This document shows positions 1 through 32,000 of a stretch of DNA of 32,000 bases, in pieces (within the stretch, counting starts at the first letter, position 1; each line of letters opens with the position of its first letter). Under the pieces are notes generated by a model. It ran no database searches, was not told the DNA's origin, and saw only the letters and a list, made by a program, of their open reading frames with translations. Source of the DNA: Candidatus Saccharimonadota bacterium (lineage in GTDB: Bacteria; Patescibacteriota; Gracilibacteria; BD1-5; UBA2023). The stretch is taken from contig BAAFHK010000001.1 in the NCBI GenBank assembly GCA_042852035.1, positions 60,001 to 92,000 on the forward strand, written 5' to 3'. The position numbers and the translations under genes are program-made.

Positions 1-120
1 TCTCATGTCGTTGTCTTCCTTGTCTCAGATGTCTGATTTCCCACCATTCTTCAGGTGAGACCTTTTACCACAGGATCAGTGTGGTAAATAGTAAATTAGA
101 GATTTATTTTATTTTGTCAA

Positions 121-151
121 TATAAAAAAGATTCACGATTGGGTGAATCTT
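121..151 (-). terminator. Intrinsic terminator oriented for the minus strand
   Basis: Perfect 9-bp stem AAGATTCAC(128-136)/GTGAATCTT(143-151) with a 6-nt loop. Read on the minus strand, it is followed by a T-run. It lies downstream of minus-strand ORF 580-263. Confidence 0.6.
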
Positions 152-167
152 AGGTTTATACAAGTGA

Positions 168-189
168 AGGCCCGCGCAGTGGCGGGCCT
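168..189 (-). terminator. GC-rich hairpin at the 3' edge of GC-rich island 1
   Basis: 8-bp stem AGGCCCGC/GCGGGCCT around a 6-nt loop. The trailing U-tract is weak. Its composition is unlike the AT-flanked host terminators. Confidence 0.45.
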
Positions 190-262
190 CTTTACCATTC
201 CCTCGTTTCTCCTTTCATTCCTTACTTTCGTAGAAACTTAGGAGAATGGTTGTTGGAGGGGT

Positions 263-580
263 TCAGTGCAGCCGGAGTTTCTTCCGCTTGCTCTTGGCGG
301 CTTCGATGAGGTCATGCGCCGACTGGAAGGGTGACTTTTCGCCGTGGCGACGCTTCACACCGTGTTCTTCCAGCAGGCGCTCTTCCTCTTGCTTGAAGGC
401 AAGAATCGTCGGGGACAACTTCGTCCCCGAGGCGTGATTCTTGTCCAGTTCATAAGCCGTTGCCAAGAGCTTGGTCCAGCGGTCCTTCTTCTGGGCCGAA
501 CGCTTCTGCCGGGCATGCCAGCTTTGGCGCATCCGGTCACCACGGGACCTGTCATTTTCGTGAGTTTGCAGTTGTTGCAT
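263..580 (-). CDS. Hypothetical basic 105-aa protein on GC-rich island 1 (standard-code ORF ending in TGA)
   Basis: Uninterrupted ATG..TGA ORF (MQQLQTHENDRSRGDRMRQSWHARQKR...). A strong Shine-Dalgarno GAGGAGGGG (complement of 583-591) lies just upstream of the ATG. Codon third positions are G/C-biased. The other overlapping ORFs in the island look like GC-rich artefacts. No family recognised. Confidence 0.6.
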   Translation of the reverse strand: MQQLQTHENDRSRGDRMRQSWHARQKRSAQKKDRWTKLLATAYELDKNHASGTKLSPTILAFKQEEERLLEEHGVKRRHGEKSPFQSAHDLIEAAKSKRKKLRLH

Positions 581-656
581 TTCCCCTCCTCAAGGGAATA
601 GGTCAAATAATGAACTGGCGCCCCACGGCACCATCATCCTATTAAATGACACCTGT

Positions 657-707
657 AGTCTATCGCTTCTCTAGTTTCTTGTCAAACAAATTTTCTCATT
701 TTATATA
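657..707. promoter_or_regulatory. Divergent promoter pair sharing a palindromic -35 (TTGTCAA/TTGACAA)
   Basis: Plus strand: TTGTCA(679-684)-N17-TATATA(702-707), pointing toward sodB. Minus strand: TTGACA(685-680)-N17-TAGACT(662-657), pointing toward ORF 580-263. Confidence 0.5.
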
Positions 708-781
708 TGAAAATGATTCTCACTCTTTCATTTTACTCGGTTCTTTTTTTAGATATAATACGTCTATATTAAATTTTTACT

Positions 782-1369: not shown

Positions 1370-1373
1370 AAAT

Positions 1374-2524: not shown

Positions 2525-2530
2525 ATCGTT

Positions 2531-3223
2531 CTAGGAAATTTCTCATTTTTGGAGTCGTTTCTTTGTTTCTTTTTCGAGAATTTCTTTCTCCTTTTCTTTC
2601 ATGTAATTCTTTAGAGAATCCCTTCGAAAAAAATAAAGATAGGCTCAAATGCCGATAAAGATTGCCATCATAATCATTCCGAGATTATCGAGAATAGTTT
2701 CATAATTATCGATGAAATATATTCCAAGGAGATTGATAGATATGGCCCATATAATAGATCATACCATATTATAGAGCCAGAATTTGCTCTCTTGCATTCC
2801 ACTTGATCCAGCAATAAATGGTATAAATGCTCGGGTGAAATTATGAAATTTCCCAAGGACAATATACCAAAATCCGTTTTGCTCGAGTTGTTTATGAAGG
2901 ATGGCCGCTTCCGTCTTTCCGAGACCAAACCAGTCACCATACTTCTCGATGAGCTCACTTCCATACCATTTTCCAATCCAATATCCTAAATAGTTTCCAA
3001 TCATAGCCCCAAATGAGGCAAGTGCTATTGTAAAAACGCTATGGTGAACTCCCCAGAATCCTCCGACTAAAATCATAATATTCATCCCAGGAAGGGCTGT
3101 TCCGATGATCGGAAGAGATTCGATACAGGCAGAGCTAAATGCAATCAAATAGTTCCAATTTCAAAGCGTTTTAATAAGCTCCCTAATCCAGGCAACCCCA
3201 TCTTTTATCCATTCAGGTCTCAT
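2531..3223 (-). CDS. DedA/SNARE-associated family membrane protein (230 aa)
   Basis: ..CIESLPIIGTALPGMNIMILVGGFWG..IGNYLGYWIGKWYG..FHNFTRAFIPFIAGSSGM... Continues through TGA 2759-2761 to TAG 2531-2533. The frame stays open upstream and encodes a TM-like stretch, so a GTG start at 3328 is possible. Confidence 0.85.
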
Positions 3224-3361
3224 GAGAGATATGAGGATAAGGGCAAATGTTGCAATCGTGAAAAAAATCGCAAGTGTTTTTGCGAAGATTTTGAGAATAT
3301 ATTTGAGTGCCTGTTTCACGAGAAGCACAATATCAAAAATGGACGTATTTGCAAGAGGGAA

Positions 3362-3855: not shown

Positions 3856-4539
3856 ATGTGGACAGAAGTTGTATCAGAACATGATGTTATTATTCGAATT
3901 GCGCTTGCTATGGTATTGGCGCTTGCTCTCGGTATCGAACGGGAGTTTAAGCAGCAGCCAGCAGGAATCCGTACTCATATTCTTATATCGGTCGGATCTT
4001 GCTTGCTTATGTTACTCTCTATCATTGTGCCTCATATATATCATTCGACGAATAATGATCCTGCTCGAATTGCGGCACAAATTGTCTCAGGAATAGGATT
4101 TCTTGGGGCAGGTGCCATCATGAGAAATGGCTTAACAACAAAAGGTCTTACAACTGCTGCCAATGTCTGGGTCACTGCTGCGATAGGCATGGCGGTTGGC
4201 GCTTGACTCTATTTTATTGCGATTATTTCAACCGGAGTTATTCTTGCAAATCTTATCTTTTTTGGACGTGCGAAAGGTTGGTTTTTTCCACAGAACCGAT
4301 ACTGCAACATCCAGATAACTACGGAAAAAAAGGGTCCAACACCAGGAGAAATCCATGAGTCGATAAAATGACTTCCTGTTGAGATTGTATCCTATTCTCT
4401 CAAAGAAAATAAAAAAAGTCATGAACTCGATTTAATAGTAAGACTTGAAAGGAGTATTACAATTTTCTCCCTTGAGAAGGATATCAAAAAAATTCCTGAT
4501 ATTGAAACACTCCATATTAGTGAAAATATTCGGGTATAA
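3856..4539 (+). CDS. MgtC/SapB family membrane protein (227 aa)
   Basis: ..IIRIALAMVLALALGIEREFKQQPAGIRTHILISVGSCLLM..AAQIVSGIGFLGAGAIM..AANVWVTAAIGMAVG... Continues through TGA 4204-4206 into a C-terminal soluble domain. TAA at 4537-4539. An in-frame TTG at 3820 is an alternative start. Confidence 0.88.
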
Positions 4540-4715: not shown

Positions 4716-6089
4716 ATGAATTCTATGACCCCAGGACAGCAGGCAACTTTTCGTGAAGTAACATCATGGATGAGGACTCCACCATCACATATCATGGGTG
4801 ATGTTACGGCACGTGATGGGATACAGGCTATCCCATGGTATCATGTTCCAACCAAGGAAAATCGTGCACAATGGGCGAAATCAATGCTTAAATTTGGGTT
4901 TCCACATATTGAGATTGGTTTTCCTGTTCTTGACTGAGATCCTGAGACATTAGCTGTAAGACATGTTGTTGAACAGACCCGAGATCTTGCTGGATGAATC
5001 TTTGTGCTAGCAAGACTCAATGAAGCCGATATTGAACAATGTGCAAAGGTTCTCGAAGGCGCTAAGCATTGAGGAATTCATACATTTATCGGGACTTCAC
5101 CCGAGCATCGAGAAGCTCTTGGTATGAATCAAGATCAGATAGTTCAAGCAGTATGAGATAGAGTTGAGCAAATACGAAAACTTTGATTTATGGCACAATT
5201 TTCTGCAGAAGATGCTACAAGAACAGAAAATGATTTTCTTTCACGGGTGTATAAGGCGGCAAGTGATTCAGGTGCTCAAATATTAAATGTCCCTGATACG
5301 GTTTGATATGCAGATTGGGATGATTTCAAGGGTAAGCTTGAAGTAGTAAAAGATGTTGCTTGAAATTCGATAATTTCTGTACATTCACATAATGATATGA
5401 GTTTTGGCGAAGCAAATCCTGCGATGGCCATTAAGCATGGTCTTACACAAAAAGTTGAAGGAACAATATTTGGGATCTGAGAAAGAACCGGAAATACGGA
5501 TCTTACATCACTTATTATTACCCTCTCTACACATCCTGAGTATAGAAAATATGTTACGAACCTCATAAAAGATAAACGACATCTCGCAAGAATTATAGAG
5601 CTTGTAGAGGCTGCAACAGGTTATACCTCACGGCCAGTCCAACCATGATATGGGTTTGATGCCTTAGTAAATAGATCTTGAGTTCATCAGGCGAAAGTGG
5701 CAAAAATGAAACAGGCATACCTTTGGGCTGATCCAGAACAATTTTGACTTCGAGATAGGAGTACTATAGATGTTTGACCACTTTCTGGAAAAGCTTGAGT
5801 TGAGTCTCTACTTCAAGAACTTAAAATCCAATATAACCCGGATGACTTAATAAAACTTACTTCCCTTATAAGAGCAATCTTCTCTCCCGATACGAATATT
5901 CATGATATTGAAGTAATGTTTCCTGAAATTCCTGAAGTCAAGATCAATAGGCTTTCAAATGAAGTTCAAGCCATAAGAAGAGAAGCAAGAATGCTTATAC
6001 CTACGATCAGATATCAGAAACAGTGGAAACAAAGAACGCACGCTATTGTAAAAGATGCAGTTCGATATTTTTATGGAGAAAAAGAGTAG
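4716..6089 (+). CDS. leuA: 2-isopropylmalate synthase / homocitrate synthase family (HMGL-like) enzyme (457 aa)
   Basis: [30 protein letters not shown], and GI-G(TGA 5478-5480)-ERTGN. 13 in-frame TGA codons, all checked. TAG at 6087-6089. Assignment to leuA rather than a paralogous function rests only on the Leu leader. Confidence 0.85.
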
Positions 6090-8729: not shown

Positions 8730-9194
8730 ATGGAAAATGTACAAAAGAGGAATCTCTCAAACCCATACAATACGTTCAGCACTATTTGTGAAACCTTCTC
8801 TCGTAGAGAAGGTATAGAAAGGAGATATTGATCTCTTCTTTTTCCCAGCCGATATGCGCCAGATATCTCTGGACTCGCACAGATTATAGCAAGAGGTCTG
8901 GATGGAAGATCGGGACCAGTAAGTATCGAGTTAACAACAATCTCAAGCAAAGTACAGAGGCGAATTGATGAGGTAGTGACTCAAATGTTAAGCTCAAAAA
9001 GAAGAATAAATCTCGCAACGAGAGATGGTGTAGATCAATGGAACGCTAAACACTGAATTTTTTATCCGAACTCTCTCTGAGAGCTTGAATATGTTCTTGC
9101 AATGAACGAAGGGGTTATGGTTCACTGAAGTATTCCTGATGTGATTTTTATTTCAGATGCTCTTTCTGAAAAGTATGAATGATTCCCAAAGTAA
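8730..9194 (+). CDS. Hypothetical protein (154 aa)
   Basis: MENVQKRNLSNPYNTF...GRSGPVSIELTT...WNAKH-G-IFYPNSL... 5 in-frame TGA, verified line by line. Tandem TTGACG/TTGACA promoters lie upstream at about 8662-8716. Confidence 0.65.
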
Positions 9195-9210
9195 AAAAGA
9201 GGAAATATTA

Positions 9211-9238
9211 TTGACATAGTTTATATAATATATATTAT
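9211..9238 (+). promoter_or_regulatory. Host-type promoter immediately upstream of GC-rich island 2
   Basis: TTGACA(9211-9216), then 16 nt, then TATTAT(9233-9238), in AT-rich sequence. The only downstream plus-strand ORF is 9278-9886. Confidence 0.5.
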
Positions 9239-9277
9239 ATACTTCACTTATCCAGGACTTGCACACGTCGTGCGAGA

Positions 9278-9886
9278 ATGGAAAGTACAACCACAGGAGC
9301 CAGCATGTCCCCATTTGAATCGTTGTTCGACCAAGGCCAAGGTCCCCAAGAGCTCGAATCCCTCTTCGAGATGCTTCAGGGCATCGAAGGACTCGAATCC
9401 CTCATCCGCAACCAGGGCCGTCCCAAGAAGCTCGACCTGGTCGACGCAACCATCAGCATCGCCATGATGATGATGGTTGATGTGCCCAAGGAAGTAATCC
9501 GGGATTCGCAGCTCAAGTCTGGCATCAGCCAGTTGAAGAGCGAACTGGAGTCTGCAGTGCAGGCCCACCTCGCACCGCTCGAGACGCTCGCCAAGGCCGC
9601 CGCCGATCGGCACAATCGTGCCCTCATCGCGCGGCTTGCGAAGCGGAAGCTCTCGCCCGAGGGTCTCCTCGAGCAGTGCACGCCGCGACTCGCGCTCGCA
9701 GTCGAAGCGTTCCGTCGTGAACTGGCCGAAGCACGCGCCGAACAGGCGATGTGCTACGCAGACTACTGCCACGGCGAACTCAGGACCATCGAGGCCGAGG
9801 CTCGGAAGCGTCACCATCGCTCGACGGCTCGCCGAGCAGGTGCTGCGGCCCGCCGGGTCAAGCAGAAGGTGCCGCCGAAAGGCTGA
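9278..9886 (+). CDS. Hypothetical 202-aa protein on GC-rich island 2 (standard-code ORF ending in TGA)
   Basis: MESTTTGASMSPFESLFDQGQGPQELESLFEML..NQGRPKKLDLVDA..., followed by an Ala/Arg/Glu-rich helical tail. Clear G/C third-position bias in this frame only. The overlapping ORFs (255 aa on the minus strand, among others) look like GC artefacts. No SD and no family recognised. Confidence 0.6.
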   Translation: MESTTTGASMSPFESLFDQGQGPQELESLFEMLQGIEGLESLIRNQGRPKKLDLVDATISIAMMMMVDVPKEVIRDSQLKSGISQLKSELESAVQAHLAPLETLAKAAADRHNRALIARLAKRKLSPEGLLEQCTPRLALAVEAFRRELAEARAEQAMCYADYCHGELRTIEAEARKRHHRSTARRAGAAARRVKQKVPPKG

Positions 9887-9925
9887 TGCATCAACAATGG
9901 GGCTCATGAGGCTCCTCACACAAGG

Positions 9926-9948
9926 CCGCCCTCGGGCGGACTTTTCTT
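9926..9948 (+). terminator. GC-rich hairpin plus T-tract at the 3' end of island 2
   Basis: CCGCC-CTCG-GGCGG, followed by ACTTTTCTTT. Confidence 0.5.
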
Positions 9949-9951
9949 TAT

Positions 9952-9983
9952 AAAAAAACCCTCTTTTAGAGGGATTTATTTTT
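9952..9983. terminator. Bidirectional host terminator (thrS 3' end)
   Basis: AAAAAAACCCTC-TTTTA-GAGGGATTTATTTTT. The thrS stop codon lies in the loop. Confidence 0.7.
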
Positions 9984-11864
9984 GATTTCTTCTCCGATTC
10001 TTCTTTCGAAGTCATCGATATATTCGGTCGTTTGAGTTTTTGTCTTAAAATTTCGTACCGCGAGACTGCTTGATTTCATCTCTTGTTCTCCGACGACAAG
10101 AATATAGTTTACATGATCTGTTTCAGCATTTCTAATCTTTTTCCCGAGAGAGTCTGACGAGTCATCAACGCTAACGCGAATATTCGTATCAAGAAGATTT
10201 TTCTTTACAGCATAACCATATTCTACGAACGCTTCACCCACTGGGATGACACGAACTTGCTCTGGAGCAAGCCAGAGAGGGAAAACTCCAGCGAAGTGTT
10301 CGATCATGATTCCCATAAATCGTTCAAGGCTTCCTGAAATGGCACGATGAATCACGACAGGTTGTTCATCTTCCCCTTGTTCATTTTTAAATGAGAGTCC
10401 AAATCGGTTTGGCTGATTAAAATCACACTGTATAGTCGCAAGTTGCCACTCTCGTCCGATAGCATCCTTGAACATGAAGTCAAGTTTGGGTCCATAGAAA
10501 GCTGCCTCACCTGGCATTGGTCGATAGTTCAGACCATTGGCGATTGCTGCATCTTCGAGGGCTTTTTCTGCGATTTCCCAGACGCTATTGTCTCAGAGGT
10601 ATTTTTCTGGAGTACTCATATCACGGATAGAAAGTGATACCCAGTATCCATCCATAAGTCCAAAAGTCGTATAGAATTCTTTAATAATATTTACAATTGT
10701 GGAAACTTCATCTTTGATCTGACTGACACGACAAAACAGATGTCCATCATCTTGAGTGATAGATCTCACACGAGTGAGTCCTGAAAGTTGTCCAGTTTTT
10801 TCATCACGGTAGACGGTTGCTGGTTCGAAATAGCGGATAGGCATATCACGGTATGAGAACTGATTATCCGCGAAAAGTTGCATATGGTGAGGACAGTTCA
10901 TTGGCTTCAAAAAGAAGTTCTCCTTCGAAGTTCCACCATACACTGAGAACATATCTTCGAGGTATTTTCCGGCATGTCCTGAAGTTTGATAGAGTTCTTC
11001 TTTCGCGAGGTGAGGGGTCCAGACTCGGTGGTATCCTTTATCAGCATGTAGGCTCCAGAGATAATCTTCTATTGCCTTTCTCATGATCATTCCTTTTGGT
11101 TGAATGAGTGGAAGCCCAGAACCAACAAGATCAGAAACCGTGAAAAGTTTCATCTTCTTTCCGAGGATTCGATGATCACGTTTTTTTGCTTCCTCCATCA
11201 TTGTCTTATAGGCATCAAGCTCAGTTCCAGTCTCGAAAGCAAGACCATAAATACGAGTGAGTTGTTTGTTTTTTGCATCTCCTCTCCAGTAAGCTCCTGC
11301 GAGTTTATCGAGGGAAAATGAGTCTTCAGAAATCTCATTTGTATTTATTACATGAGGCCCCTGGCACATATCGATAAAAGTCGAAGTACGGAAATCGAAA
11401 TTGGTTTTTCCTTGATTTTCACCTACAACGGATCGACCATTTGTATCTTCGATAGCATAGGAGTCAGGATTATTTAAAAACTCAAATCCTTCATATGCAG
11501 GGTTATGGAACTTTCCGATATTTGCAAAAAATGAAATCGTAGTTTCACCCTTCTTCTCAAGATCCTCAATCATTTCGAGTTTATAAGTTTCACCAAGAGT
11601 GGAGACAAGAGTTTTTGCATCATTTACTGAGAGTGAAAATTGCTTAAATTCCTGACCCTCACGAACAATGGCTTTCATTTTTTTCTCGATATCTTTGAGT
11701 TTGCTTTCTTCGAGTGTTGATTCTCCGAAATCGATATCATAGTACCAACCATTATCGACATCTGGTCCGATAGCGAGTTTCGCATTGGCGCCCATAACCA
11801 TGCGAGTGGCTTGTGCCATGATGTGAGAGAGGGAGTGACGGCGAGTAGAGAGAGGGAGTGACAT
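9966..11864 (-). CDS. thrS: Threonyl-tRNA synthetase (632 aa), no N-terminal TGS domain
   Basis: Starts MSLPLSTRRHSLSHIMAQATRMV..AIGPDVDNGWYYDIDF, which is the editing-domain HxxxH region. Class II core FLKPMNCPHHMQLF..RYFEPATVYRDE..GLTRVRSITQDDGHLF. One in-frame TGA (10593-10595) joins the two track ORFs. Confidence 0.95.
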
Positions 11865-11885: not shown

Positions 11886-12500
11886 TTAAAAGTTTATATT
11901 TTTGCTCGATTTGATTACCTGCGTAATTCTATCTACTTCTGCATTTAGACGAATTGCAAATTCATCACTTGATGCATCTATATTTCTTATTATGATTTTA
12001 GAAATATCCGAATCTGACTTATCATCCTTAAATTTATCGTTGTTTTTTCTTTGAAGGTATGTGCTTAAATTCGCATAGAGTTCATTTTGAATTTCTAGAA
12101 TTCAATCAAGATTTACTGATTTTTCCAGGTCACTTATAGTAATACAAGCTATTGCATATGCTGAAGTTAAATTTTTCCAGGATTTTATTACATTTTCCCA
12201 ATGTTTATTTCTTATATTTTCCTCTGTATCAGTTAGTAAAAAACCAATTGGTCGGGCTTGTTCTATTGAGATTTCGTAGTCCTTTAATGCGGTAAGTAGA
12301 TTTATTCAAGATTCTGTATTCTTTTTAATTTTTTCTTGTTTTTTCCATAAAGTAAATCATATATAAATTCAAATAATTGTAGTGATTAGGCTTATTATTC
12401 CTCTTGAAATCTCATTTGTAATATTGATACTTCAACTCCAGTCGATAGAACATGACGTCATGAAGAAGAGAAGCGGGATGAGGAGGAGGGAGAGTTTCAT
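11886..12500 (-). CDS. Putative lipoprotein (204 aa)
   Basis: MKLSLLLIPLLFFMTSC, a signal peptide with a lipobox-like Cys. 5 in-frame TGA, verified line by line. Starts 6 nt after the VKOR stop. Confidence 0.65.
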
Positions 12501-12505
12501 TTTTT

Positions 12506-12979
12506 CTATGCTTTAATTTTTTTCTTATCTGATTTCCACCAAATACAAGTTGAAACGATACATATTGTTATAATAATAACTGTACACATAGCACAGAGAG
12601 GACAAAAAACACCGACAATAATTTCTTGAGAGATGACATATGAGTTAAAAAGTATACCACCAGCCGAAAGTCCAGTAAGGATTTTTGCTGGGCACGTTGT
12701 TTTCGAAAACCATCCCCAAAGTGCTATAAGAAAAAGAATTGGATAGACAATCGCTGCCACCATAGGAAATGCTACCTTAAAATCTCCAATCGAGAAAATA
12801 ATAGCGCGTGGATTCTGGAGGATTCCAGAACAAGAAAGTTTATCAGAAATATCACATGGCATCATCTGGAGGGCGCTACTATTGGCTCCATTCCAATATT
12901 CGTAGGCAGGGATGGAGAGGTATATTGCGTTGAATATACCGATAGCAGCGAGAACAGCAATAACGAGATATTTTTTCAT
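12506..12979 (-). CDS. Vitamin K epoxide reductase (VKOR) family thiol-oxidoreductase membrane protein (157 aa)
   Basis: Four-TM pattern with loop cysteines (CDISDKLSC) and a CPLC redox motif. No in-frame TGA. Confidence 0.8.
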   Translation of the reverse strand: MKKYLVIAVLAAIGIFNAIYLSIPAYEYWNGANSSALQMMPCDISDKLSCSGILQNPRAIIFSIGDFKVAFPMVAAIVYPILFLIALWGWFSKTTCPAKILTGLSAGGILFNSYVISQEIIVGVFCPLCAMCTVIIITICIVSTCIWWKSDKKKIKA

Positions 12980-16143: not shown

Positions 16144-16965
16144 ATGTCAAAAACCGAAGTTACATGATTTCTTGTTACTGCTATACAGCTTCCAAAAGAT
16201 ACCCCTCTTTCACAGGTGGAGGATGTTTTTAAAGCGAAGCTCGTAAAATCCATCGATTCCAGCTATTCGTGCCAGATAGTAAAAGGAAAGAATATTTTTT
16301 TCTACAAATTCTCTGTAATTGTTTTTACCGGGTATAGTGATGAGGAAATTGCTTATTATTATGAACAACTTGGCGGAAGTCAAAAGAATCTTGAATCCAA
16401 ATCTGAACAGTATGAAGTGGTAGTTAATCCATATCTTACAAAAGAATATGTACTCGATGATACGAGCATTACCATAAAGGCAGAGTCCTACGAGCGTCTT
16501 GAGATTATTGCCTTCTCGTTAGCTCATTCTGTTGCGATGGACTATTATGAGGGTCGTACCGAAGAGCTGCTTCAGAAGATGAATTTCTATGATGATCTTA
16601 AAAAGTATAACAAAATTAAGCTCACCGATAAGGAAGCCATGAAGCTTATTGCTGAAATCCTTTCGAATAAGCATCGACTCGTTTCTGAGCTCTATCTTTT
16701 TGATAAGCCAGATATAATATGGGATGACATAGAACTCGAACGTCTCTATCATGCACTGTATGCGTATTTTGATATCGATGATCGATTCAAGTCCATCGAG
16801 TACAAGAATAACCTTATGAATGATAATATTACTTTTCTTCATGATGTGATAGACACAAGGAAGGCACATACTCTTGAGCTTATTGTCGTATTTCTTATTG
16901 CATTCGAAGTCCTTTTTACACTTTGAGAGTTCATACATAAATATTTTATTATAGGAAATCTCTAG
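16144..16965 (+). CDS. DUF155 / RMD1 (YagE-like) family protein (273 aa)
   Basis: The family assignment comes from overall similarity as I remember it, plus a C-terminal TM (LELIVVFLIAFEVLFTL). The ATG at 16144 is in frame with track ORF 16216. Passes TGA codons at 16165 and 16924. TAG at 16963-16965. Confidence 0.7.
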
Positions 16966-21279: not shown

Positions 21280-21864
21280 ATGGCAAATATCGACCATGCA
21301 CCAAGTAAATATATGCTCAATCTTCTTCATGTTCTTCCAGCTTTTTCTGATGAAGGAGCCCTGAGGATTAACACGATTATTGAACTCAATTCAATGACGA
21401 TTAATAAATATGAAATAATTACTGAATCTGGACAACTTAAGCTTGATCGAGTAGGGTATTCATCACTTTCATACCCGTTTGCTTATGGGGCGATTCCATG
21501 CACTTGGGATGAAGATGGAGATCCTCTTGATGTTGAGATTGTTGGAGTGACTGAGCCACTTATTCCAGGTTCAGTTGCTGAGGTTCGTATTATAGGTATT
21601 ATGAAATTTAACGATGGAGGAGAAGTTGATGATAAAGTTATTGGAGTTCTTGCTGATGATAAGCGTATGGATCACATTACTTCATATGAGCAACTTGGAG
21701 CCCATTGGCTCAAGGAGACGACATATTACTGGGAACACTATAAAGATCTTAAGAAGCCAGGGACTTGTAAGGTGGATGGATTTTTTGATTCAAGTGAAGC
21801 TGTAAAAATTATCAAAGAATGTGAAGATCGATATAAAGCAGAATATCTTCCGAAGTTTCAATAA
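21280..21864 (+). CDS. ppa: Inorganic pyrophosphatase, family I (194 aa)
   Basis: YPFAYGAIPCTWDEDGDPLDVEIVG..KFNDGGEVDDKVIGV... No in-frame TGA. Confidence 0.93.
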   Translation: MANIDHAPSKYMLNLLHVLPAFSDEGALRINTIIELNSMTINKYEIITESGQLKLDRVGYSSLSYPFAYGAIPCTWDEDGDPLDVEIVGVTEPLIPGSVAEVRIIGIMKFNDGGEVDDKVIGVLADDKRMDHITSYEQLGAHWLKETTYYWEHYKDLKKPGTCKVDGFFDSSEAVKIIKECEDRYKAEYLPKFQ

Positions 21865-22168: not shown

Positions 22169-22537
22169 TTATTTTAATGAGTCTTCGAGAATCAGTCTTG
22201 CACTTTCTGCATCGATATCATCAGCTCCTGACATCTTCGCTTCCGCCGTAGTAAGTCGTTCATCGTGAAGTACTATCTCTTTTGTTGGGAATGATAATGC
22301 TAGTTCTTTTGCAAAAGTTCGCACTTTCTTAGAGTGACTTGATTCAGTTCCATCGATATTGAGTGGAAGTCCGAGAACGATAGTATTGCATTTTTGGCAT
22401 TTTTCCCATTTTAAAAGATATTCAATGAGTTCCTTGGTTGGAATGGTTGTATGACTAAAGCAAAAAGATTCGACCGAAAAAGCGAGTCCGCATTTGCGAG
22501 TCCCGTAGTCGATGGAGATGCAATCTTTTTTTATCAT
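22169..22537 (-). CDS. ruvX: Holliday-junction resolvase-like YqgF/RuvX (122 aa)
   Basis: ISIDYGTRKCGLAF.., LGLPLNIDGTES.., LHDERLTTAEA. No in-frame TGA. Confidence 0.88.
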   Translation of the reverse strand: MIKKDCISIDYGTRKCGLAFSVESFCFSHTTIPTKELIEYLLKWEKCQKCNTIVLGLPLNIDGTESSHSKKVRTFAKELALSFPTKEIVLHDERLTTAEAKMSGADDIDAESARLILEDSLK

Positions 22538-22545: not shown

Positions 22546-23013
22546 TTACTTTTCCTCCACTTTGACATCTACAATAATTTTTGCCATTGTATCTCGAGTG
22601 ATGTGAAGGTAGACGAGATGAGTTCCAGTTTTTTTAATGTGAGTTTTGTTCGGGAGTTTGATATCATTTTTTTCGAAGTGGATACCGAACTTCTCATTGA
22701 CTTTCGTAGCAATCGCATGCTCATCGAGTCCACCAAAAACTTTAGTTCATACTCACTTGAGGGTAAATTCAAAAATTTGGCCGTCAATCATTTTTTGAAT
22801 ATCGAAAGCTTTCTCAAGTCTTTCTCGTGCTTGATCTTTGGATCGTTTTTCTTTTTCTGCAATTTGCTTCAGTCTTTCTGGTGTAACTTCACGGGCCATT
22901 TTTTTGGGGATGAGAAAGTTCCGGGCTTGAGCTGCAGTAACTTCAATAATATCTCACTTTCGGCCCATGTGAGCGATATCAAGGAGGAGTTCTACGGAAA
23001 TTTTTGATTGCAT
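22546..23013 (-). CDS. rplI: Ribosomal protein L9 (155 aa)
   Basis: MQSKISVELLLDIAHMGRK-G(TGA)-DIIEVTAAQARNFLIPKKMA... Absent from the standard-code track. Verified block by block. TAA at 22546-22548. Confidence 0.9.
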
Positions 23014-23051: not shown

Positions 23052-23573
23052 TTATCATTGATTCGAGTCATGCGGTACTGGGAGCGGATTTCAAGGAATG
23101 GGAGGAAGAATAAGCCTCCTTCCATTATTATCATGATATATTGGTTCTCAAAGTAGCGACATTCTTCAGGCAAAGCAATTTCCTGATTTTGAATCTATGA
23201 GTCAGTCAGCATTCAGGCGTAAATTCATACACGTATATGTTGCTTTATTGAGTCATTTTAGTTCATATGTCTTTGGTCAGAAATCTTTTTCGTTTCATAT
23301 TTTACAACTGATAAATCCTACTCGGAGTGGATTTTCTGTATAGGTGCATTCTCATGGTCCAGAGATTCCTTCTCAGCGAAGGATTCAATTAATATGTGTG
23401 ATAGTAAGTTCTTGGAATTTCCTACTTTTTATGTCATAGAATCATCGATATGAAACCATAATATTTCATACTCACAAAGCAACCGCTCATGAAACCAAGA
23501 GAGCAAAGGGATGTTTTTTTATCCATTTGGGAGCTTTTTCTCAGGCAAGTCCTCTAAGATTTAGTGCAGACAT
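23052..23573 (-). CDS. Hypothetical membrane-anchored Gly-rich protein (173 aa), completely hidden in standard code
   Basis: 174 codons with no TAA/TAG and 16 in-frame TGA, so 16 of 22 Gly codons are TGA. N-terminal TM FALLVSGAVALGVGNIMV. Promoter TTGACA(23607-23602)-N16-TATATT lies immediately upstream of the ATG. Confidence 0.6.
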
Positions 23574-23676: not shown

Positions 23677-23923
<247 letters not shown>

Positions 23924-24065: not shown

Positions 24066-24377
24066 ATGATCGCAGTTGTAGAAATCGGTGGAAAACAATA
24101 TACCATTGAAAAATGACAGGTTATTGATGTAGATAATCAGAATCTTGAAGTAGGAAAGACTCTTGAGGTTACTCCACTTCTTGTTGCCTCAAAAGATGGA
24201 AAAGATGTAAAAGTTGGAGCTCCAAAAGTTGAATGAGCAACTGTAAAGCTCAAGGTAGTTGAGAATTTTAAAGATGAGAAGGTAAGTGTTTTTAAGATAA
24301 TTGCTAAGAAGCGTCATACAAGGAATTTTGGTTTCCGGGCAATGCGTACTCGTCTCGAGGTAACATCTATTGCCTAA
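24066..24377 (+). CDS. rplU: Ribosomal protein L21 (103 aa)
   Basis: MIAVVEIGGKQYTIEK-G(TGA)-QVIDVD...KIIAKKRHTRNFGFRAMRTRLEV. TAA at 24375-24377. Confidence 0.9.
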
Positions 24378-24420: not shown

Positions 24421-25542
24421 ATGAATCGATACCTCAATACGCATGCTCGCATTAAACGAGCTTTGCGTAATAATCAAAAGGTGTATTCGGCGACTGAATC
24501 GTTTAAGAGATTTCGATGGTTTACTTTGGGGCTCATTGTATTGCTCCCAATTTATCCTTCTCTTGCGATTATTGGATCTGACTATGAGGTTCAGGCTGGC
24601 GATTATGATGAGACAACAATTATTACGGCGTATGAAGGGGATGAGGGAATGGAAGGGAGTTATATAAACAAGTCAGGTCTGATTAGTACCGATTTTGATG
24701 TTGTTACTTCGGTAAAAAAACAGCAACAGCAGGAGGAAAAAAATATGCCACTTAATGAAAATGAAAGGGCAAAAAGTTATAAAATTGTTTCTTGAGATAC
24801 GCTTGCTTCTATAGCAAAAAGAAATGGTATCACTCAAGAGGCGCTTGCTTGGGCTAATGATTTAGATCCAAGTGAATGACTTCAGGTTGGTGCAATTCTA
24901 AGAATTCCACCCGTTTCTTGAGTCGTTCATAAAATTGCAAAGGGGGATACTATTTCGGAAATCGCGAAGAAATATCACGTGGATCAAGATGAAATTTTCA
25001 GAATAAATCACATGACAGGTGATTCAACCCTGCGCATTGGTATGAAGCTCATGATACCTTGAGCTGCTCCAGTAAAATCAGTTACCGCATCAGATCCTGC
25101 TCCAGCGAAAAAAACAAATGATTTAAAGCCAATACCAACAGAAAGCCCAGGACTAAAACCAACAGTTGTTGATACAAAGACAGGACTGAAATCCCGTTAT
25201 GTCGTAAAATATACCTGACTTTCACGTGGTTTTGCATGGGGGAATTGTACTTGGTATGTTGCGCAAAATAAGACCGTAACATGGAGAGGGAATGCAAATG
25301 CTTGGATAAAGAATGCAAAAGCAAAGGGAGTTCCAACGGGTCAAAAGCCAATCCCGGGCGCTATCGTACAGTTCACCGGAAGATGATATAATCGCTATTA
25401 CGGACATGTTGGTATTGTTGCTGACGTAACGGATGATTACATTATTGTGAAGGATATGAACTATCGTAAAATCAATGAAGTTACTATCCGAAAGGTTCCA
25501 CGTGATGACTCAACAATAGATGGGTATATTTACGTTGATTAG
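24421..25542 (+). CDS. Secreted peptidoglycan hydrolase: N-terminal TM, 2 LysM repeats and a C-terminal CHAP domain (373 aa)
   Basis: LysM-like YKIVS-G-DTLASIAKRNGIT and HKIAKGDTISEIAKKYHV. CHAP-like AWGNCTWYVA....YGHVGIV. 6 in-frame TGA, verified. Confidence 0.85.
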
Positions 25543-25673: not shown

Positions 25674-25940
25674 ATGAGTACCGGTACAGTTAAGCGTTTA
25701 TTTGTTGGAAACGTTCCATTTCGTATTGAGGCTGAAGAGCTTCGTGCACTTTTTGAAGAAGTAGCTCCAGTAGCTGATTTCTTTTGGCCTATGGATCGTG
25801 AAACAGGTCGCAAAAAAGGATTCCTTTTCGTTGATGTTGATGAGGCTGATGTAGCTAAGGTAATCGAAGCTATGAATGGTAAGGAAGTTATGGGTCGTCC
25901 TCTCGCCGTGAACGAGGCTCGTCCACGTGAAGAACGTTAA
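25674..25940 (+). CDS. RRM-type RNA-binding protein (88 aa)
   Basis: RLFVGNVPF (RNP-2) and KGFLFVDV (RNP-1). No TGA. The first ATG is at 25674, and the track start at 25614 is a non-ATG codon. Confidence 0.85.
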   Translation: MSTGTVKRLFVGNVPFRIEAEELRALFEEVAPVADFFWPMDRETGRKKGFLFVDVDEADVAKVIEAMNGKEVMGRPLAVNEARPREER

Positions 25941-26077: not shown

Positions 26078-26770
26078 ATGAGCAATTTTTCTATAGAGCA
26101 TATCTCCTTTATTATGGATGGGAATAGAACTTGGGCAAAGGACCGACTTTTGCCGAGTCTTGAGTGACACAGAAGATGATATGAGAATGCAAAGAATATT
26201 ATCCGACTGGTAAAAAAAAGAAATATTCCATACGTGAGTCTTTGGGTTCTTTCAGATGATAATATAATCAATCGTTCAAAAGAAGAAGTATCATATCTTT
26301 TTGATCTTCTAGAAAGGGGAATGAGAGATATTGCTCGAGAAGCAAAACAGGAAGGTAATAAAATCGTCGTTATTGGTAATAGAGATCTTCTTCCAGCTGC
26401 TTGTCGGGAAAGTATCGATTATGCTGAAAATCTAACTCAACATGAGGTAGGTACTACGGCTATTATAGCTTTATGATACGGTGGGCAGGATGAAATTATT
26501 CGAGCAGTTCAGAAAATTTTAGAGAACTGAATCCGCCCCGAGACACTTACAAAAGAAGTTTTTCAATCATTTGTTGAAAGCGCACAATATCCAAATCCTG
26601 ACCTCATTGTCCGGACAGGATGACATCAAAGACATTCTGGATTTCTTTTGTTCCAAAGCCCATATGCAGAATATTATTTTTCTGAAAAAAACTGGCCAGA
26701 ATTTAGTGAAGATGACTTGGATGTTGTCTTGTTGAGTTTTCAAAATCGTGACAGAAAGTTCGGAAAATAG
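26078..26770 (+). CDS. uppS: Undecaprenyl diphosphate synthase (230 aa)
   Basis: HISFIMDGNRTWAK.., LE-G-HRR-G-YEN, VRTG-G(TGA)-HQRHSGFLLFQSPYAEYYFSEKNWPEF. Verified line by line. Confidence 0.92.
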
Positions 26771-26819: not shown

Positions 26820-27695
26820 ATGCTTCAGGAATGGTATGCTGCATATAAATCAAATGTTGATGAGGCTATAGAAGAGTATTTTATAAAACGTTATGCAGTA
26901 GTATCACGCTCGCCAGAAGAAAAACGTTTTGAGGAAGCTCTTCGATACGCGGTAATGACTCCAGGAAAACGCCTTCGTCCAATTCTCGCGATGATTGCCT
27001 ATGAAGAGTTTGCTGAAATTTCAGGGGATAGGGTTCTTCCATACTTTATAGGACTTGAAATGATACATGCATATTCGCTTGTACATGATGATCTTCCGGT
27101 AATAGATAATGATGAACTTCGCCGTGGTCAGCCGACAGTGTGGAAGAGGTATGATGAGGCAACTGCTATACTTGTTGGTGATGCTCTTCAGATAATGGGT
27201 ATCGAATGTCTTGCACAATCGGATAACATAAAAGTTATTGTTGAAATCTCATGGGCCATCGGAGATATGGGTATGGTTCGAGGACAGATTCGTGATGTTA
27301 TGATTGATGCCACATCTCTCAATCAAGATGAAATGTTACGACTTCACGATGAAAAAACAGGTCGCCTCATCTCTTCTTCTTTGATTATTTGAGCTTTAAC
27401 TGCTTGAGTTTATGAAGGTCAAATGTTTGATCGATTAAGGTTATTTTGAATTTTGCTTGGTCGCGCCTTTCAGATTCGAGATGATATTCTCGATTATGAA
27501 GGTCAAATAGAAAGTCTAGGGAAAGCGGTAGGAAAAGATATTGCTAATAAGAAGGGGGTTGTATCGTATATGGGAATAGATAGAACAAAAAAATTGCTTC
27601 AAGATCTTGAACATGAACTTATTGATATCGCAAAATCCTTTCATACCTCAAAATTTATAGATATCGTCGAATATGTTCTTAGAAGAGAAAAATAG
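26820..27695 (+). CDS. Polyprenyl (farnesyl/geranylgeranyl) diphosphate synthase (291 aa)
   Basis: HAYSLVHDDLPVIDNDELRRG (first DDxxD region) and GRAFQIRDDILD (second). 3 in-frame TGA codons join track ORFs 26820-27392 and 27453-27695. Confidence 0.9.
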
Positions 27696-27831: not shown

Positions 27832-28677
27832 TTAGAAATATTTTTTCTGAGATTGGTACGCTTTCCATGTATTCTCAATAAGTGTTGCAACAGTCATAGG
27901 GCCAACTCCACCAGGTGTTGGGGTAATCGCCATAATCGTATCTTTTAGATCCTCAAAGTCAGTATCGCCTCGAGCTACGCCATCTATAAATGTGCTTCAT
28001 ACATCAATAACAATCGATTTTTCATGTACCATATCTTTCGTTAGGAGTCCAGGATGACCAGCAGCTACGATAACAATATCAGCTGATTTTGTCTTCTCTA
28101 TAAGGTTTTCGGTGGAGCTATTGCAACTTATTACGGTGGCTCAAGCATTAATAAGCATAAGTGCCATGGGCTTCCCAACAATGTTTGATCTCCCAATTAC
28201 GACCACATTTTTTCCGGCAACATCAATTTTATAGTGTTTAAGAAGTGTCATAATTCATTTTGGCGTGCAACTCCAAAGACCATCATGACCGAGGTACATA
28301 TTTCCGATTTGAGTTTTTGTAAATCCATCAACATCTTTTCGAGAATCAATACATTCTGTAACAGAATATCGATCGATATGATTCGGAAGAGGAGCTTGTA
28401 TGATAAGCCCGTGGATACGGTCGTCGCTTGAGAGTTTTTTTACTTCAGTTTCAAGCTCTTCTTGAGATATTGTTGCCTCATATTTATAAAGTCCAAATCC
28501 CATTCCAACTTCTCGTGCGCGTTTCTCCTTCATTCGAATATAGGCGAGGCTTGCTTCATTATTCCCCACTAAGACCACCGCAAGCATTGGCTTATCGGTT
28601 CAGGTAGGAGAGTATGTAATCTGATTTTTTATACTTTCGAGAATTTGGGATGCGACGATGCGTCAATCGAGAATCAT
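27832..28677 (-). CDS. folD: Bifunctional methylene-THF dehydrogenase/cyclohydrolase (281 aa)
   Basis: MILD-G(TGA)-RIVAS.., [48 protein letters not shown](TGA)-, [11 protein letters not shown]. Verified block by block. Confidence 0.93.
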
Positions 28678-28781
28678 ATTGATAGTATAAAAAGAGAGGA
28701 TTTTTTTGCAATTCTTTATGTCTTCGGATTTTTGAAAAAAATTTAAATATAGGATATCATAGATTTGTTACTCTAAAAAAT

Positions 28782-30011
28782 ATGGCACTCTCAAATTTTC
28801 CTGATTATTCATATGACATGCTTTGACCGCCTTTGGATACTAAAAAGGTGGAACCACCAAGCTTACCCTCTTTTATGAAAGAAGGGGTACATGAAAGTGT
28901 AGAAATGAATCTTGCAGAACTTAGAAAAACACTCATTCCTACAGATGAAATGGCACGTCAAATCGATAGACAGTCTGATCCTATTTGAGGCATACATTGA
29001 CTCAAACTAGTTCTCTCGAAAACGAATAACTATAAATGAAAAATTGATGGAAACATTGATGAATGAAAGAATGTATGAGGTTCAAGAATTAATCCACTGG
29101 TAAAATGACTTATTGATTTCCAGGTTTCCTATAATAGCCCATTTCGCCTTGGAGAAGATGGAAGACCGCTGGATAAATCAAGTCCAGGCACTGAATATAA
29201 GCAATGAATCCCTAGGAATGAAATCGGAAAGCTTTGACCTGTGACTTTAACGGTTCTTCTTGATTTTGCGAAAAATAATGGTCTTACTCTTCCACCTTCC
29301 CGTTGAGATAAGAAATTTGAAAACACTTGAGAGTTTATACAGAAATATGGTCCGATGGTTGATTATTTGACTCAAGCACTCGGTCTTCCTAAAAATTTGA
29401 TTCTCTGAATAGCAAAACAAGAATCGAATCTTTGAACCAATCCAAATGACTATTGGTGAGGGAATGGAGTGCTTCAGCTCACTAGTGCTCCTTTGGCAGA
29501 CATGACGGGGGTTACTCAAAATAAGTCTGTTATTGATTGGAGAAAGATTGGAATTTACCAAAATATTTTTAAAAAGATTGATTCAAAGTTCTTAAAAACC
29601 ATTCCATTTTGATCAGTTATGAATAATGTTGGATCGAGTCTGGATGATGATGCATGGAGTGTTGTGGATACTCTTTGTTCTGGAAATACTGACCCAAAGA
29701 GTTTCCGTGAGGCTATGTTAAAGGTTCAATCTTGGGAAAGAGGAAAATTCCGATGACTGACATATCATACACTCAATATACTCGTCGGATCCGCTTACCT
29801 CTCTTATATACAAAATTATCGACTGAAATGAAGTCAGAATGTGGCAAGCATTGCTCAAGCATATAATTGATCATGACATAAAGAACTCTATGCTCAATCA
29901 GTGAGTAGACATGTGAAATCATTTAGTATTGCCTGAAGACCAAATACAAAGCCTCAATCAAATCAAACTCTTCTAGCTCAAGACGATAATCTCGATAACG
30001 ATGTTGCTTAG
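28782..30011 (+). CDS. Lytic transglycosylase (SLT domain) with PG-binding-like repeat (409 aa)
   Basis: ..[14 protein letters not shown]-.. resembles PG_binding_1. SLT catalytic region [24 protein letters not shown] and AQAYN-G-S-G-H. 20 in-frame TGA, every line checked. Confidence 0.8.
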
Positions 30012-31024
30012 ATTTTTGGGTGAGAAATATATTCCTCACCCTTTTTTGTAATCTGCCTCCCACGTGGAGTTCTTTCGATGAGTCCAATCTGAAGGAGATA
30101 TGGCTCTACCACATCCTCAATTGTAGACACCTCTTCGCCGATAACTGAGGCAATTGTAGAAAGTCCAGTCGCTCTTCAGGAGAAAGTATCCCGTAGATGA
30201 TGAAGAAGCTTCCTATCGAGAGAATCGAGCCCAGCGATATCTACCCCAAATCCATGAAATATTTCATCGCAATCTTCTTTTGTGGAGATATTTCTTCCAG
30301 TAGTCATGTAATCGCGTAGAATTTTCACGTATCTATTTGCGATACGTGGAGTTCCACGAGAACGAAGGGCGATAGAAGTAATCGTATCAGATTCAACCTT
30401 CTCTAAAGAAAGAATCTTAAATGATCGTTGTACAATTGTTGCAAGCTCCTCAGTATTATAGAAATCAAGTTTGAGGACATTCCCAAATCGATCTCGGAGA
30501 GGATTCGAGAGGCTGGAAAGTTTTGTTGTTGCTCCAATAAGTGTAAATTTTGGAATATCCATTTTAACACTTGTGCTTCCTGTTCCACTTCCAATCATGA
30601 TATCAATCTGAAAGTCCTCCATCGCTGAATATAGAATTTCTTCGATTTGTGGCCTGAGGCGATGAATTTCGTCAATGAAAAGAATTTCTCACTCAGTAAG
30701 GCTTGTGAGAAGGGAAATAATGTCAGCCTGTTTTTCTATAGCTGGACCACTTGTATGCTTAATTGGTGATCCCATCTCGTGGGCGATTACGGTCGAAATT
30801 GTGGTCTTCCCAAGCCCTGGAGGACCATAAAAAAGAATGTGCTCAAGTGGGGATTTTCGTATTTTTGCACTTTGTATAGCCACTCCGAGATGTCTTTTCA
30901 TCGATTCCTGTCAGACATACTCGCCGAGAGTCCGGGGGCGGAGAGATATTTCGGAGATGATTTCTTCTTCGCTTTGCTCGGGTTTCACAATTCGTGTAAT
31001 GTCAGAAGAGGATTTGATAGCCAT
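30008..31024 (-). CDS. ruvB: Holliday junction DNA helicase RuvB (338 aa)
   Basis: [11 protein letters not shown](TGA 30911-30913)-[13 protein letters not shown] (Walker A), [22 protein letters not shown] at 30008-30010. The ATG at 31024 (MAIKSS) is preferred over the upstream TTG at 31150. Confidence 0.93.
30018..30047 (+). terminator. Terminator of the SLT gene, embedded in the last codons of ruvB
   Basis: GGGTGAG-loop-CTCACCC followed by TTTTTT on the plus strand. On the minus strand, the same bases encode ..[11 protein letters not shown]. Confidence 0.65.
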
Positions 31025-31085
31025 AATAAGGGAGATTATATTAAAAAAATGATGCCAAGCAAAGAGAAAAAATGAATTAATTATT

Positions 31086-31115
31086 AAAAAAGTCAATAAT
31101 AATATTGACTTTTTT
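31086..31115. repeat. Perfect 12-bp inverted repeat with back-to-back TTGACT hexamers
   Basis: AAAAAAGTCAAT-AATAAT-ATTGACTTTTTT, in the ruvB / 31155-ORF intergenic region. Confidence 0.7.
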
Positions 31116-31154
31116 AAATAAAAGGTTATTTTTAACTGAATTTTATTCAATACA

Positions 31155-31862
31155 GTGATTAGTACCGCTAAAACTTCATGATCAGAATCTGCTACTATTG
31201 AGCCGTTTTTTGACCAAAAAGTAGCTCAGGAGATGCCAAACGTATCACTCATAAGGGGTGGTGGTGAAAAACCTGTCCTTTCCGTCTGAAGGGTTCAATT
31301 AGCAATGTCGATGAATCCGAAGGTCTTGGTAGAAAAAATACGGAATCACCCAAAAAATCCCGCCAAGAGACCAATTGATAAGCAAAAACTTAATAAGGCA
31401 ATCAGCCTCGCTATGGGGCTTCCATTTAAGCCAAGAAAATCATGAGAGCCTTATGTGGCACATCTTTTGAGATCAGCACTTTACTATCTCAATTTTTGTC
31501 CAAACCCTACTGTTGATGGCTTGATGGCAGCCATCCATCACGATTCATATGAGGAGCACCCGGAAGGAGTGAATAGAATTCGTTGAGCCATTGGAGTTAC
31601 ATCACTTGAAACCGTTATGGCACTCTCAAAAATGCCACCTAAACTTTTGGAAGAGACTGATCGGAAGTGAATTTCCCCAAGAGTGATGGGGGTTCATAAG
31701 CGAGTACGAAGTGCCCTAGAAAGCCATAGTATGGTTTTAGATGCGCTAAATTTTGAGGCAACTGCCTTCAAACTTGCGAGAAATTCTCTTGAAATGCTCC
31801 CATTTCTGCGGGAACTTGTAACTCCAGAGGTCTTTTTAAGAGAGCTTGCAGCTACGGAATAA
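31155..31862 (+). CDS. Hypothetical protein (209-235 aa)
   Basis: The frame is open from 31122 to TAA 31860-31862 with 6 TGA, checked line by line. Candidate starts are GTG 31155 and ATG 31233. No family recognised. Confidence 0.55.
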
Positions 31863-32000
31863 TCTCTCGTAGGATCGCGTTCACATAACCCAGATGACTT
31901 GATTGCTCTCTGAGAGCTCTATCAGAGGCTTAGAATGTGAAGCGACAATGAAGATCTTTATGAAGAGATGGCTCTTGCAATAGGGCTTTTAGAAACAGAA
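31863..32000 (+). CDS. Possible 5' part of a further CDS running off the window
   Basis: The same frame stays open (46 codons, 2 TGA) from just after the TAA to the window end and reads protein-like (..DDLIAL-G-ELYQRLRM-G-SDNEDLYEEMALAIGLLETE). No ATG start was identified. Confidence 0.25.

Follow-up and report, generated by a model that had tools for sequence, protein, structure and literature searches.

How UGA is decoded is the question raised by a 32,000-nucleotide stretch of genomic DNA from a Candidatus Saccharimonadota bacterium (contig BAAFHK010000001.1, positions 60,001 to 92,000; hereafter, the window). A first-pass annotation, made from the sequence alone, had proposed that UGA is read as glycine over the whole window (NCBI translation table 25). 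This proposal held for the ordinary genes, in which UGA almost certainly specifies glycine, leaving UAA and UAG as the only stops. For two GC-rich islands, each carrying one small open reading frame (ORF), uniform glycine decoding was not demonstrated. In practice, this DNA should be annotated with table 25, since most genes are otherwise split.

Analysis of the reading frames of the window (G+C content, 38.9% over 32 kb) revealed that when TGA counts as a stop, ORFs with 100 amino acids or more span 23.5 kb, and the longest ORF has 431 amino acids. When the stops were limited to TAA and TAG, the longest ORF reached 640 amino acids. Dropping TAA or TAG as a stop in place of TGA brought no comparable gain. 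Gene models were defined as ORFs delimited by TAA or TAG, and TGA was translated as X for searches with Pfam profiles. The 31 ordinary gene models comprise 8,559 codons, including 149 in-frame TGA codons compared to 465 GGN codons, and the TGA share of their glycine codons is 24%. Profile matches extended from end to end across the TGA codons for Sod_Fe_N/C, glycosyltransferase family 4 (GT4), VTT, MgtC, HMGL-like, tRNA-synt_2b with HGTP_anticodon (in threonyl-tRNA synthetase, ThrRS, and glycyl-tRNA synthetase, GlyRS), VKOR, DUF155, Orn_Arg_deC_N, pyrophosphatase, LysM-CHAP, Prenyltransf, polyprenyl_synt, THF_DHG_CYH, RuvB_N/C, Ribosomal_L21p, Ribosomal_L9_N/C, RuvX, and RRM. The terminal codons of the 31 models are TAA (19 models) and TAG (12 models), placed at the end of the profile match. 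The claim that only these two codons end genes thus stood for all ordinary models; it did not extend to the two GC-rich small ORFs, in which conserved coding ends at a conserved TGA.

The gene sizes that the first-pass annotation had given for ThrRS, GlyRS, and FolD with TGA as a sense codon were recovered, with full-length Pfam matches, and all six TGA codons that it had singled out, four on the forward strand and two on the reverse strand, were located in the frame of their gene (Table 1). Two genes said to be hidden by the standard code, rplI and rplU, are present and match their ribosomal protein profiles. A third, at positions 23052 to 23573, is present as an open frame without a homologue.

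The residue encoded by UGA was determined by three independent tests, namely, alignment with Protein Data Bank (PDB) sequences from standard-code organisms, inspection of the corresponding column in GlyRS homologues, and codon alignment with recoded relatives. Comparison of FolD with the PDB sequences revealed Gly in 4/4, 5/5, and 5/5 sequences at three TGA codons (motifs ILD-G, TP.G, and VxDVG) and in 2/5 sequences at the fourth; the fifth falls in a variable column. In the LeuA-like protein, five TGA codons correspond to invariant Gly residues (PDTVG, GIGERxGN, ESGIHQ, and two more). Two TGA codons of uppS are positioned at invariant Gly residues (GH motif and RTGGE), and two are in variable or ambiguous columns. 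RuvB showed Gly at 3/3 TGA codons. In 3/3 iron superoxide dismutases, the TGA codon of sodB aligns with the first of the two Gly residues in the (E/S)GG motif, which reads EGG in E. coli. Both alignable TGA codons of the decarboxylase correspond to Gly in 3/3 chains.

The GlyRS scan, with one genome per GTDB species, returned 80 loci. The column of the single GlyRS TGA codon was occupied by Gly in 75/75 non-recoded homologues and by GGA, GGA, GGG, GGT, or TGA in recoded relatives. Codon-level alignments with recoded relatives covered sodB, glyQS, thrS, recG, a helicase, the LysM-CHAP gene, rplU, and the LeuA-like gene; in these, TGA was matched by GGN in 78 cases and by TGA in 38 cases, and never by TGG, TAA, or TAG. 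For example, the thrS TGA is opposite GGA in the relative L082 (and opposite Gly in one non-recoded match), and TGA codons of the LysM-CHAP gene are opposite GGG or GGA five times in the relative L002. Tabulation of the residues at the TGA columns gave glycine at the conserved motif columns named above and tryptophan at no column, across the six PDB-aligned families and the alignments with non-recoded GlyRS and ThrRS. These results support the assignment of UGA to glycine made in the first-pass annotation.

A tryptophan reading of UGA (table 4), known from mycoplasmas and certain insect endosymbionts, would likewise remove TGA from the stops and give identical ORF lengths, and the JGI/Logan gene calls for relatives place W at the TGA positions (P0002 and P0003). 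The window equals table 4 in ORF structure, with UGA as a sense codon, but differs from it in that the TGA columns hold Gly and never Trp and that TGG never stands opposite TGA in relatives, where GGN does so 78 times. In addition, a weak SLT match of the ORF at 28782 to 30011 was obtained with G substituted at the TGA positions and not with W. The tryptophan reading is thus extremely improbable. Standard decoding, with the TGA codons as real stops in pseudogenes or as sequencing or assembly errors, is supported by the ORF track of translation table 11 itself and by nothing else. Against it stand the 149 TGA codons in 31 colinear genes without frameshifts and with full-length profile matches, the same codons kept or swapped for GGN in independent assemblies, and an independent Logan assembly (contig L086, run DRR350542) that is identical to the window over 1.9 kb (positions 1 to 1943). 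This explanation has hardly any probability left. The 78 GGN against 0 TGG codons, together with the Gly columns, therefore led to rejection of the table 4, pseudogene, and sequencing-error readings. The features of table 25, i.e., in-frame UGA at glycine positions, UAA and UAG stops, and an AT-rich Gracilibacteria genome belonging to the candidate phyla radiation (CPR), are found in the ordinary genes of the window without difference.

Some observations weigh against glycine as the uniform meaning of UGA. In the LeuA-like protein, one TGA codon is positioned at a conserved Ile and one at a conserved Ala, others being in variable columns, and one TGA codon of uppS is positioned at the conserved Asn of xNYGG. 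Neither the window, whose only tRNA is a tRNA-Gln, nor 14 related loci yielded a tRNA-Gly with anticodon UCA. The conserved TGA ends of the island ORFs belong to the same side. The off-glycine codons are located in ..IAL-x-YGG.. of uppS and in ..VQP-x-YG.. and ..GKA-x-VES.. of the LeuA-like gene, and none corresponds to Trp. They represent either real Gly substitutions in divergent proteins or local misalignments.

The window derives from the chromosome of HHAS10, an activated-sludge metagenome-assembled genome (MAG) that belongs to class JAEDAM01 of the Patescibacteria/CPR and is listed at NCBI under Candidatus Altimarinota. One window ORF is 100% identical to NCBI entry HHAS10_00590 ("Candidatus Altimarinota bacterium," 750-kb contig), which has G at the TGA positions. 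The placement in the Gracilibacteria/Absconditabacteria branch by the first-pass annotation agrees with the nearest GlyRS relatives, which are Gracilibacteria MAGs (84 to 59% identity, with 84% for an oral MAG); non-recoded Peregrinibacteria/Peribacteria come next. In Fujii et al. 2024 (PMC11393006), HHAS10 is described as a JAEDAM01 episymbiont of Zoogloea, with the class formerly placed inside Gracilibacteria/BD1-5, and UGA is reported as reassigned to Gly by Codetta in JAEDAM01 MAGs, including HHAS10. Because of that report, the recoding found here was already known for HHAS10. It is textbook knowledge for the lineage, with table 25 being the Candidate Division SR1 and Gracilibacteria code (Campbell 2013, Rinke 2013, and Hanke 2014, cited in PMC6851277 and PMC10746230), and nothing new is added to it here.

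UGA supplies about one quarter of the Gly codons in the ordinary genes. On the basis of the lineage, UGA would be decoded by a tRNA-Gly with anticodon UCA in the absence of release factor 2 (RF2). The prfB gene was reported to be absent from all BD1-5 genomes available in 2019, and proteomic validation of UGA as glycine in another member of the group is cited in the same study (Sieber et al. 2019, PMC6851277). Two supplementary files of the HHAS10 paper contain no mention of prfA, prfB, release factor, or tRNA-Gly.

The use of TGA is very uneven across the genes and seems to be concentrated in poorly conserved ones. The ratio of TGA to GGN codons is 16 to 6 in the orphan gene at 23052 to 23573, 20 to 19 in that at 28782 to 30011, and 17 to 31 in that at 19537 to 21183, compared to 1 to 45 in ThrRS and 1 to 31 in GlyRS.

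Analysis of base composition revealed two outliers, at positions 151 to 700 (up to 59% GC) and 9251 to 10000 (up to 69% GC). Each of these islands (islands 1 and 2 [Table 1]) forms a separate predicted transcription unit whose GC-rich part coincides with the transcribed part. Their sigma-70-like promoters are positioned in the AT-rich flank, and the promoter at 9211 to 9238 matches at 11/12 positions; each unit also has an intrinsic terminator. Each island contains one ORF with strong codon periodicity and a G+C content at third codon positions of 0.70 to 0.73, compared to 0.23 to 0.41 in ordinary genes. The ORFs are preceded by Shine-Dalgarno (SD) sequences, GAGGAGGGG-N3-ATG in island 1 and AGGAGCC-N3-ATG in island 2, and GGAGG-type sites were found only in the island ORFs. 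In the 25 nucleotides upstream of 26 ordinary gene starts, an SD sequence was found in 0/26 cases. The leaders of ordinary genes are AT- and pyrimidine-rich and often read ...(t/c)cct ATG or tcacct ATG, e.g., ttcacctATG. In island 2, a closing helix is predicted between approximately 9294 to 9316 and 9895 to 9917, followed by a terminator at 9926 to 9939.

A third unit of the same kind (island 3) is located just left of the window on contig L086 (positions 1824 to 2360, including 1938 to 2201). In the more distant recoded relative L088, an island 3 homologue (2899 to 3162, reverse strand) has an island-1-type leader (cattccctgaggaggggtaATG) and ends with TAA, and another GC-rich, Lys/Ala-rich small ORF (12418 to 12693, forward strand) ends with TAG. 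The island leaders accordingly seem to be modular, and all three standard stops occur within the island class. The NCBI model of island 2 (HHAS10_00590, P0001, 289 amino acids, 9179 to 10048, forward strand) starts inside the promoter region (TTGACA at 9211) and, being a table 25 model, continues past the TGA at 9884, the hairpin, and two terminators and enters the convergent thrS gene at its 3' end. At both its ends, the deposited model probably extends past the true gene.

The island families are tiny, with 5 proteins for island 2 and 3 proteins for island 1 among 1.84 billion cluster representatives. All recovered contexts belong to recoded relatives and show a shared synteny, namely, sodB-island-recG or an island convergent with thrS. 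The synteny of the window in general is as follows. The relative L001, a human-oral Gracilibacteria MAG whose GlyRS is 84% identical, has glyQS alone in common with the window and no neighbor gene over 20 kb, and L002 has only tRNA-Gln, rplU, and the LysM-CHAP gene in common. Loci found via other genes (L082, L083, and L088) retain local synteny. This pattern would mean either that gene order has been little conserved or that glyQS has had a separate history. Because L001 and L002 have so few genes in common with the window, the codon comparisons leaned on loci found via the island proteins.

The homologues bear on the possibility that UGA has two meanings in this genome, i.e., glycine in AT-rich ordinary genes and an effective end of translation in GC-rich, SD-bearing, structured mini-genes. 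Such an outcome could arise by context-dependent termination, by ribosome drop-off at a helix 3' of the UGA, or by standard-code machinery elsewhere. The positions of the ends are in favor of this explanation. Island 1 ends with ...KLRLH-TGA in 3/3 genomes (window, L083, and L085). Island 2 ends with ...K(G/V/F)-TGA in 4/4 genomes (window, L087, L082, and L088), at 39 to 50% amino acid identity and with saturated synonymous sites. The island 3 ORF ends with TGA in 2/3 genomes, and the third genome has TAA at an equal ORF length (85 to 87 amino acids). Past the TGA of island 1, the proteins are no longer similar, and the frame is broken by indels of lengths not divisible by three. The island 2 homologues have a hairpin and a terminator after the TGA, with no in-frame TAA or TAG ahead of the terminator. 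Altogether, TGA is the terminal codon of 9/11 island ORFs; the next in-frame TAA or TAG, where read, is positioned 12 to 54 codons on. The terminator precedes that codon in 7/8 TGA-ended copies checked, a set that leaves island 3 of L083 aside; the exception is island 1 of L083, with TAG 12 codons past the TGA.

Codon usage points in the same direction. The 11 island ORFs contain 62 GGN codons and no internal TGA, compared to a TGA share of 24% in ordinary genes. When scaled to the low GGA use of the islands, about 5 TGA codons are expected (P of ~0.007), a value to be read with the nonindependence of the orthologues in mind. The restriction of SD sequences to the islands, with none at the 26 ordinary genes inspected, and the pairing of the SD/AUG region described below are also in line with two meanings of UGA.

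Folding of the transcripts gave z-scores, relative to shuffled sequences, of -8.5 for island 1 and -6.2 for island 2, compared to +0.1 for the sodB mRNA as a control. In both islands, the SD/AUG region is predicted to pair with the sequence directly 3' of the UGA, as GGAGGGG with CCCCUCC in island 1. The island 2 helix is preserved across its family, and its flanks covary: the window has GGAGCC:GGCUCC, L088 has GGAGACC:GGUCUCC, and L082 has UAGGAGC:GCUCCUA. Reading of the sequences revealed that the island untranslated regions are conserved, with GNRA-type hairpins. Changes at fourfold-degenerate sites amount to 0.23 to 0.28 in island 1, compared to 0.61 to 0.63 in the neighboring sodB and recG genes, whereas the island 1 protein is less conserved (74 to 80% versus 91 to 92% for sodB and recG). 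The low rate of silent change in spite of a less conserved protein therefore points to a constraint that would act on island 1 at the nucleotide or RNA level. By codon-position identity (0.73 at position 2 and 0.45 at position 3), island 2 evolves like an ordinary protein gene.

Other points speak against two meanings of UGA. No mechanism is known for termination at UGA without RF2, and prfB is reported to be absent from BD1-5 (PMC6851277). The orthologues are few, and some come from close relatives, which makes the counts nonindependent. The cell may just tolerate a read-through tail. A GC-rich codon bias alone lowers the expected use of TGA, and island 2 is not markedly GC-rich in the relatives L082 and L087. 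A double meaning of UGA is considered unlikely. Termination would give products ending in ...VPPKG (island 2) and ...KLRLH (island 1), and Gly read-through would give PKGGCINNGAHEAPHTR or RLHGTPPTTILL.

It is considered fairly probable that the resident ribosome reads the island UGA as Gly, with the unconserved tail being tolerated or the product being made short-lived, and, jointly with this, that the standard-code look of the islands reflects foreign ancestry and/or selection on RNA structure. A low probability is assigned to two alternatives taken together, namely, that UGA effectively ends island translation or that a standard-code system decodes the island RNAs. What probability remains falls to the islands acting mainly as RNAs. 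That the islands represent a conserved class of mini-genes (two in the window, one just outside, and more in relatives) written in the standard code, with UGA, UAA, and UAG as interchangeable ends, is doubtful. A standard-code decoder of the island RNAs could be the high-GC host Zoogloea on which HHAS10 lives. None of these alternatives changes the verdict on UGA as glycine in the main genes.

Only one item of the window might surprise a specialist, namely, the structured mini-genes that are GC-rich, carry an SD sequence, and end on TGA. If UGA did end island translation, a bacterial codon would have two meanings without RF2; alternatively, a symbiont would be maintaining genes that another cell decodes. 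GC-rich, TGA-terminated small ORFs go unmentioned in the passages of Fujii et al. 2024 that deal with codons and the genetic code, the look-up not having been aimed at GC content or Shine-Dalgarno sequences.

The islands were compared with known systems. Phages compatible with code 11 have been predicted for code-25 hosts among the Gracilibacteria/Absconditabacteria (Liu et al. 2023, PMC10746230). Like these phages, the islands are genetic units without in-frame TGA in a host setting in which UGA is Gly. In contrast to the phages, which mostly avoid a TGA stop or place other stops close to it, the islands end on TGA with the next TAA or TAG at the distance of 12 to 54 codons. Each is one small gene, placed in conserved chromosomal synteny without phage genes in the vicinity. 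Of the features of a code-11-compatible mobile element, the islands thus have the lack of in-frame TGA but neither non-TGA or clustered stops nor phage or plasmid hallmarks or mobility. A tblastn search of the islands against phages and plasmids gave no match.

The mRNAs of type I toxins (hok and AapA1) show a 5'-3' fold-back. Like them, the island RNAs are predicted to be compact and stable, with a long-range helix that joins the SD/start region to the 3' part of the same transcript. The island products differ from those of hok and AapA1, which are short hydrophobic peptides, in being 104 to 200 amino acids long, hydrophilic, basic, and, by prediction, helical. AlphaFold predicted a long helical hairpin for the island 2 protein (predicted local distance difference test score [pLDDT], 74), and no fold match for this model was found in the PDB. 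The island 1 model was weak, below use as a query for a fold search.

Searches for known counterparts of the islands were negative. Rfam at gathering and E value thresholds returned nothing credible, ARAGORN found no transfer-messenger RNA, and Pfam and PHROGs returned nothing significant (best PHROG E value, 0.13, at the default threshold). Look-ups of the exact products of the table 11 island ORFs and of the NCBI protein P0001 were without success. One metagenome scan with the island 1 leader motif gave two chance matches, located in a DnaJ-like gene.

The scaffold L090 (ENA ERZ28573561, 539 bp, 62% GC) contains at positions 263 to 427 the core of the island 2 protein in frame (46 amino acids, 65% identity). 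This core follows a fragment whose only match is a Gemmatimonadaceae protein, and L090 may come from a high-GC bacterium that has this motif or may be a chimera made in assembly. An origin of island 2 from the Zoogloea host was not retained, as L090, the only high-GC carrier found, adjoins a Gemmatimonadaceae fragment and is possibly chimeric.

Table 1. Features of the window, in order of position (TGA, number of in-frame TGA codons; aa, amino acids)
Feature	Coordinates	Strand	Evidence and remarks
Island 1	120..690	-	Promoter 685-657; SD GAGGAGGGG; ORF from ATG 580-578 to TGA 265-263, 104 aa; terminator 151-128
sodB, Fe superoxide dismutase, 195 aa	782..1369	+	Pfam Sod_Fe_N/C full length; 1 TGA (968-970)
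Glycosyltransferase family 4 (MraY/WecA-like), 374 aa	1400..2524	-	Pfam PF00953; 9 TGA
VTT/DedA-family membrane protein	2531..3361	-	Pfam PF09335; 4 TGA; start codon uncertain
MgtC-family protein	3856..4539	+	Pfam PF02308; 2 TGA
LeuA/homocitrate-synthase-like (HMGL), 457 aa	4716..6089	+	Pfam HMGL-like; 13 TGA, including 5478-5480
Hypothetical protein, 545 aa	6970..8607	-	GC1>GC2>GC3 coding pattern (G+C by codon position); 9 TGA; no Pfam match
Island 2	9205..9950	+	Promoter 9211-9238; SD AGGAGCC; ORF from ATG 9305 (or 9278) to TGA 9884-9886, 193 or 202 aa
thrS, 632 aa	9966..11864	-	Pfam tRNA_SAD, tRNA-synt_2b, HGTP_anticodon; 1 TGA
VKOR-family protein	12506..12979	-	Pfam PF07884; 0 TGA
glyQS, class II GlyRS, 478 aa	14664..16100	+	Pfam; 1 TGA (15285-15287)
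DUF155 protein	16144..16965	+	Pfam PF02582; 2 TGA
Orn/Lys/DAP decarboxylase, 403 aa	17122..18333	+	Pfam Orn_Arg_deC_N; 4 TGA, including 17818-17820
Hypothetical lipoprotein-like protein, 548 aa	19537..21183	-	Coding GC pattern; 17 TGA; no Pfam match
Inorganic pyrophosphatase	21280..21864	+	Pfam PF00719; 0 TGA
ruvX (YqgF)	22169..22537	-	Pfam PF03652; 0 TGA
rplI (L9)	22546..23010	-	Pfam Ribosomal_L9_N/C; 3 TGA
Orphan ORF, 173 aa	23052..23573	-	16 TGA versus 6 GGN; putative gene from open frame and GC pattern only
tRNA-Gln(UUG), sole tRNA	23729..23803	+	ARAGORN; Rfam RF00005
rplU (L21)	24066..24377	+	Pfam PF00829; 2 TGA, both opposite GGA in L002
LysM-CHAP cell-wall hydrolase	24421..25542	+	Pfam LysM, CHAP; 6 TGA
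RRM RNA-binding protein	25674..25940	+	Pfam RRM_1; 0 TGA
uppS	26078..26770	+	Pfam Prenyltransf 1-219/219; 5 TGA
Polyprenyl diphosphate synthase (IspA-like)	26820..27695	+	Pfam PF00348; 3 TGA
folD, 281 aa	27832..28677	-	Pfam THF_DHG_CYH, THF_DHG_CYH_C; 5 TGA, including 28663-28665
Hypothetical protein, 409 aa, possibly SLT-like	28782..30011	+	20 TGA; weak SLT match (E = 0.025) only with TGA as G, not as W or X
ruvB, 338 aa	30008..31024	-	Pfam RuvB_N/C; 3 TGA, including 30911-30913

The orphan ORF at 23052 to 23573 gave no Pfam match with X, G, or W at its TGA positions. The exact product of the pyrophosphatase gene is present on a Logan contig of run SRR14932559.

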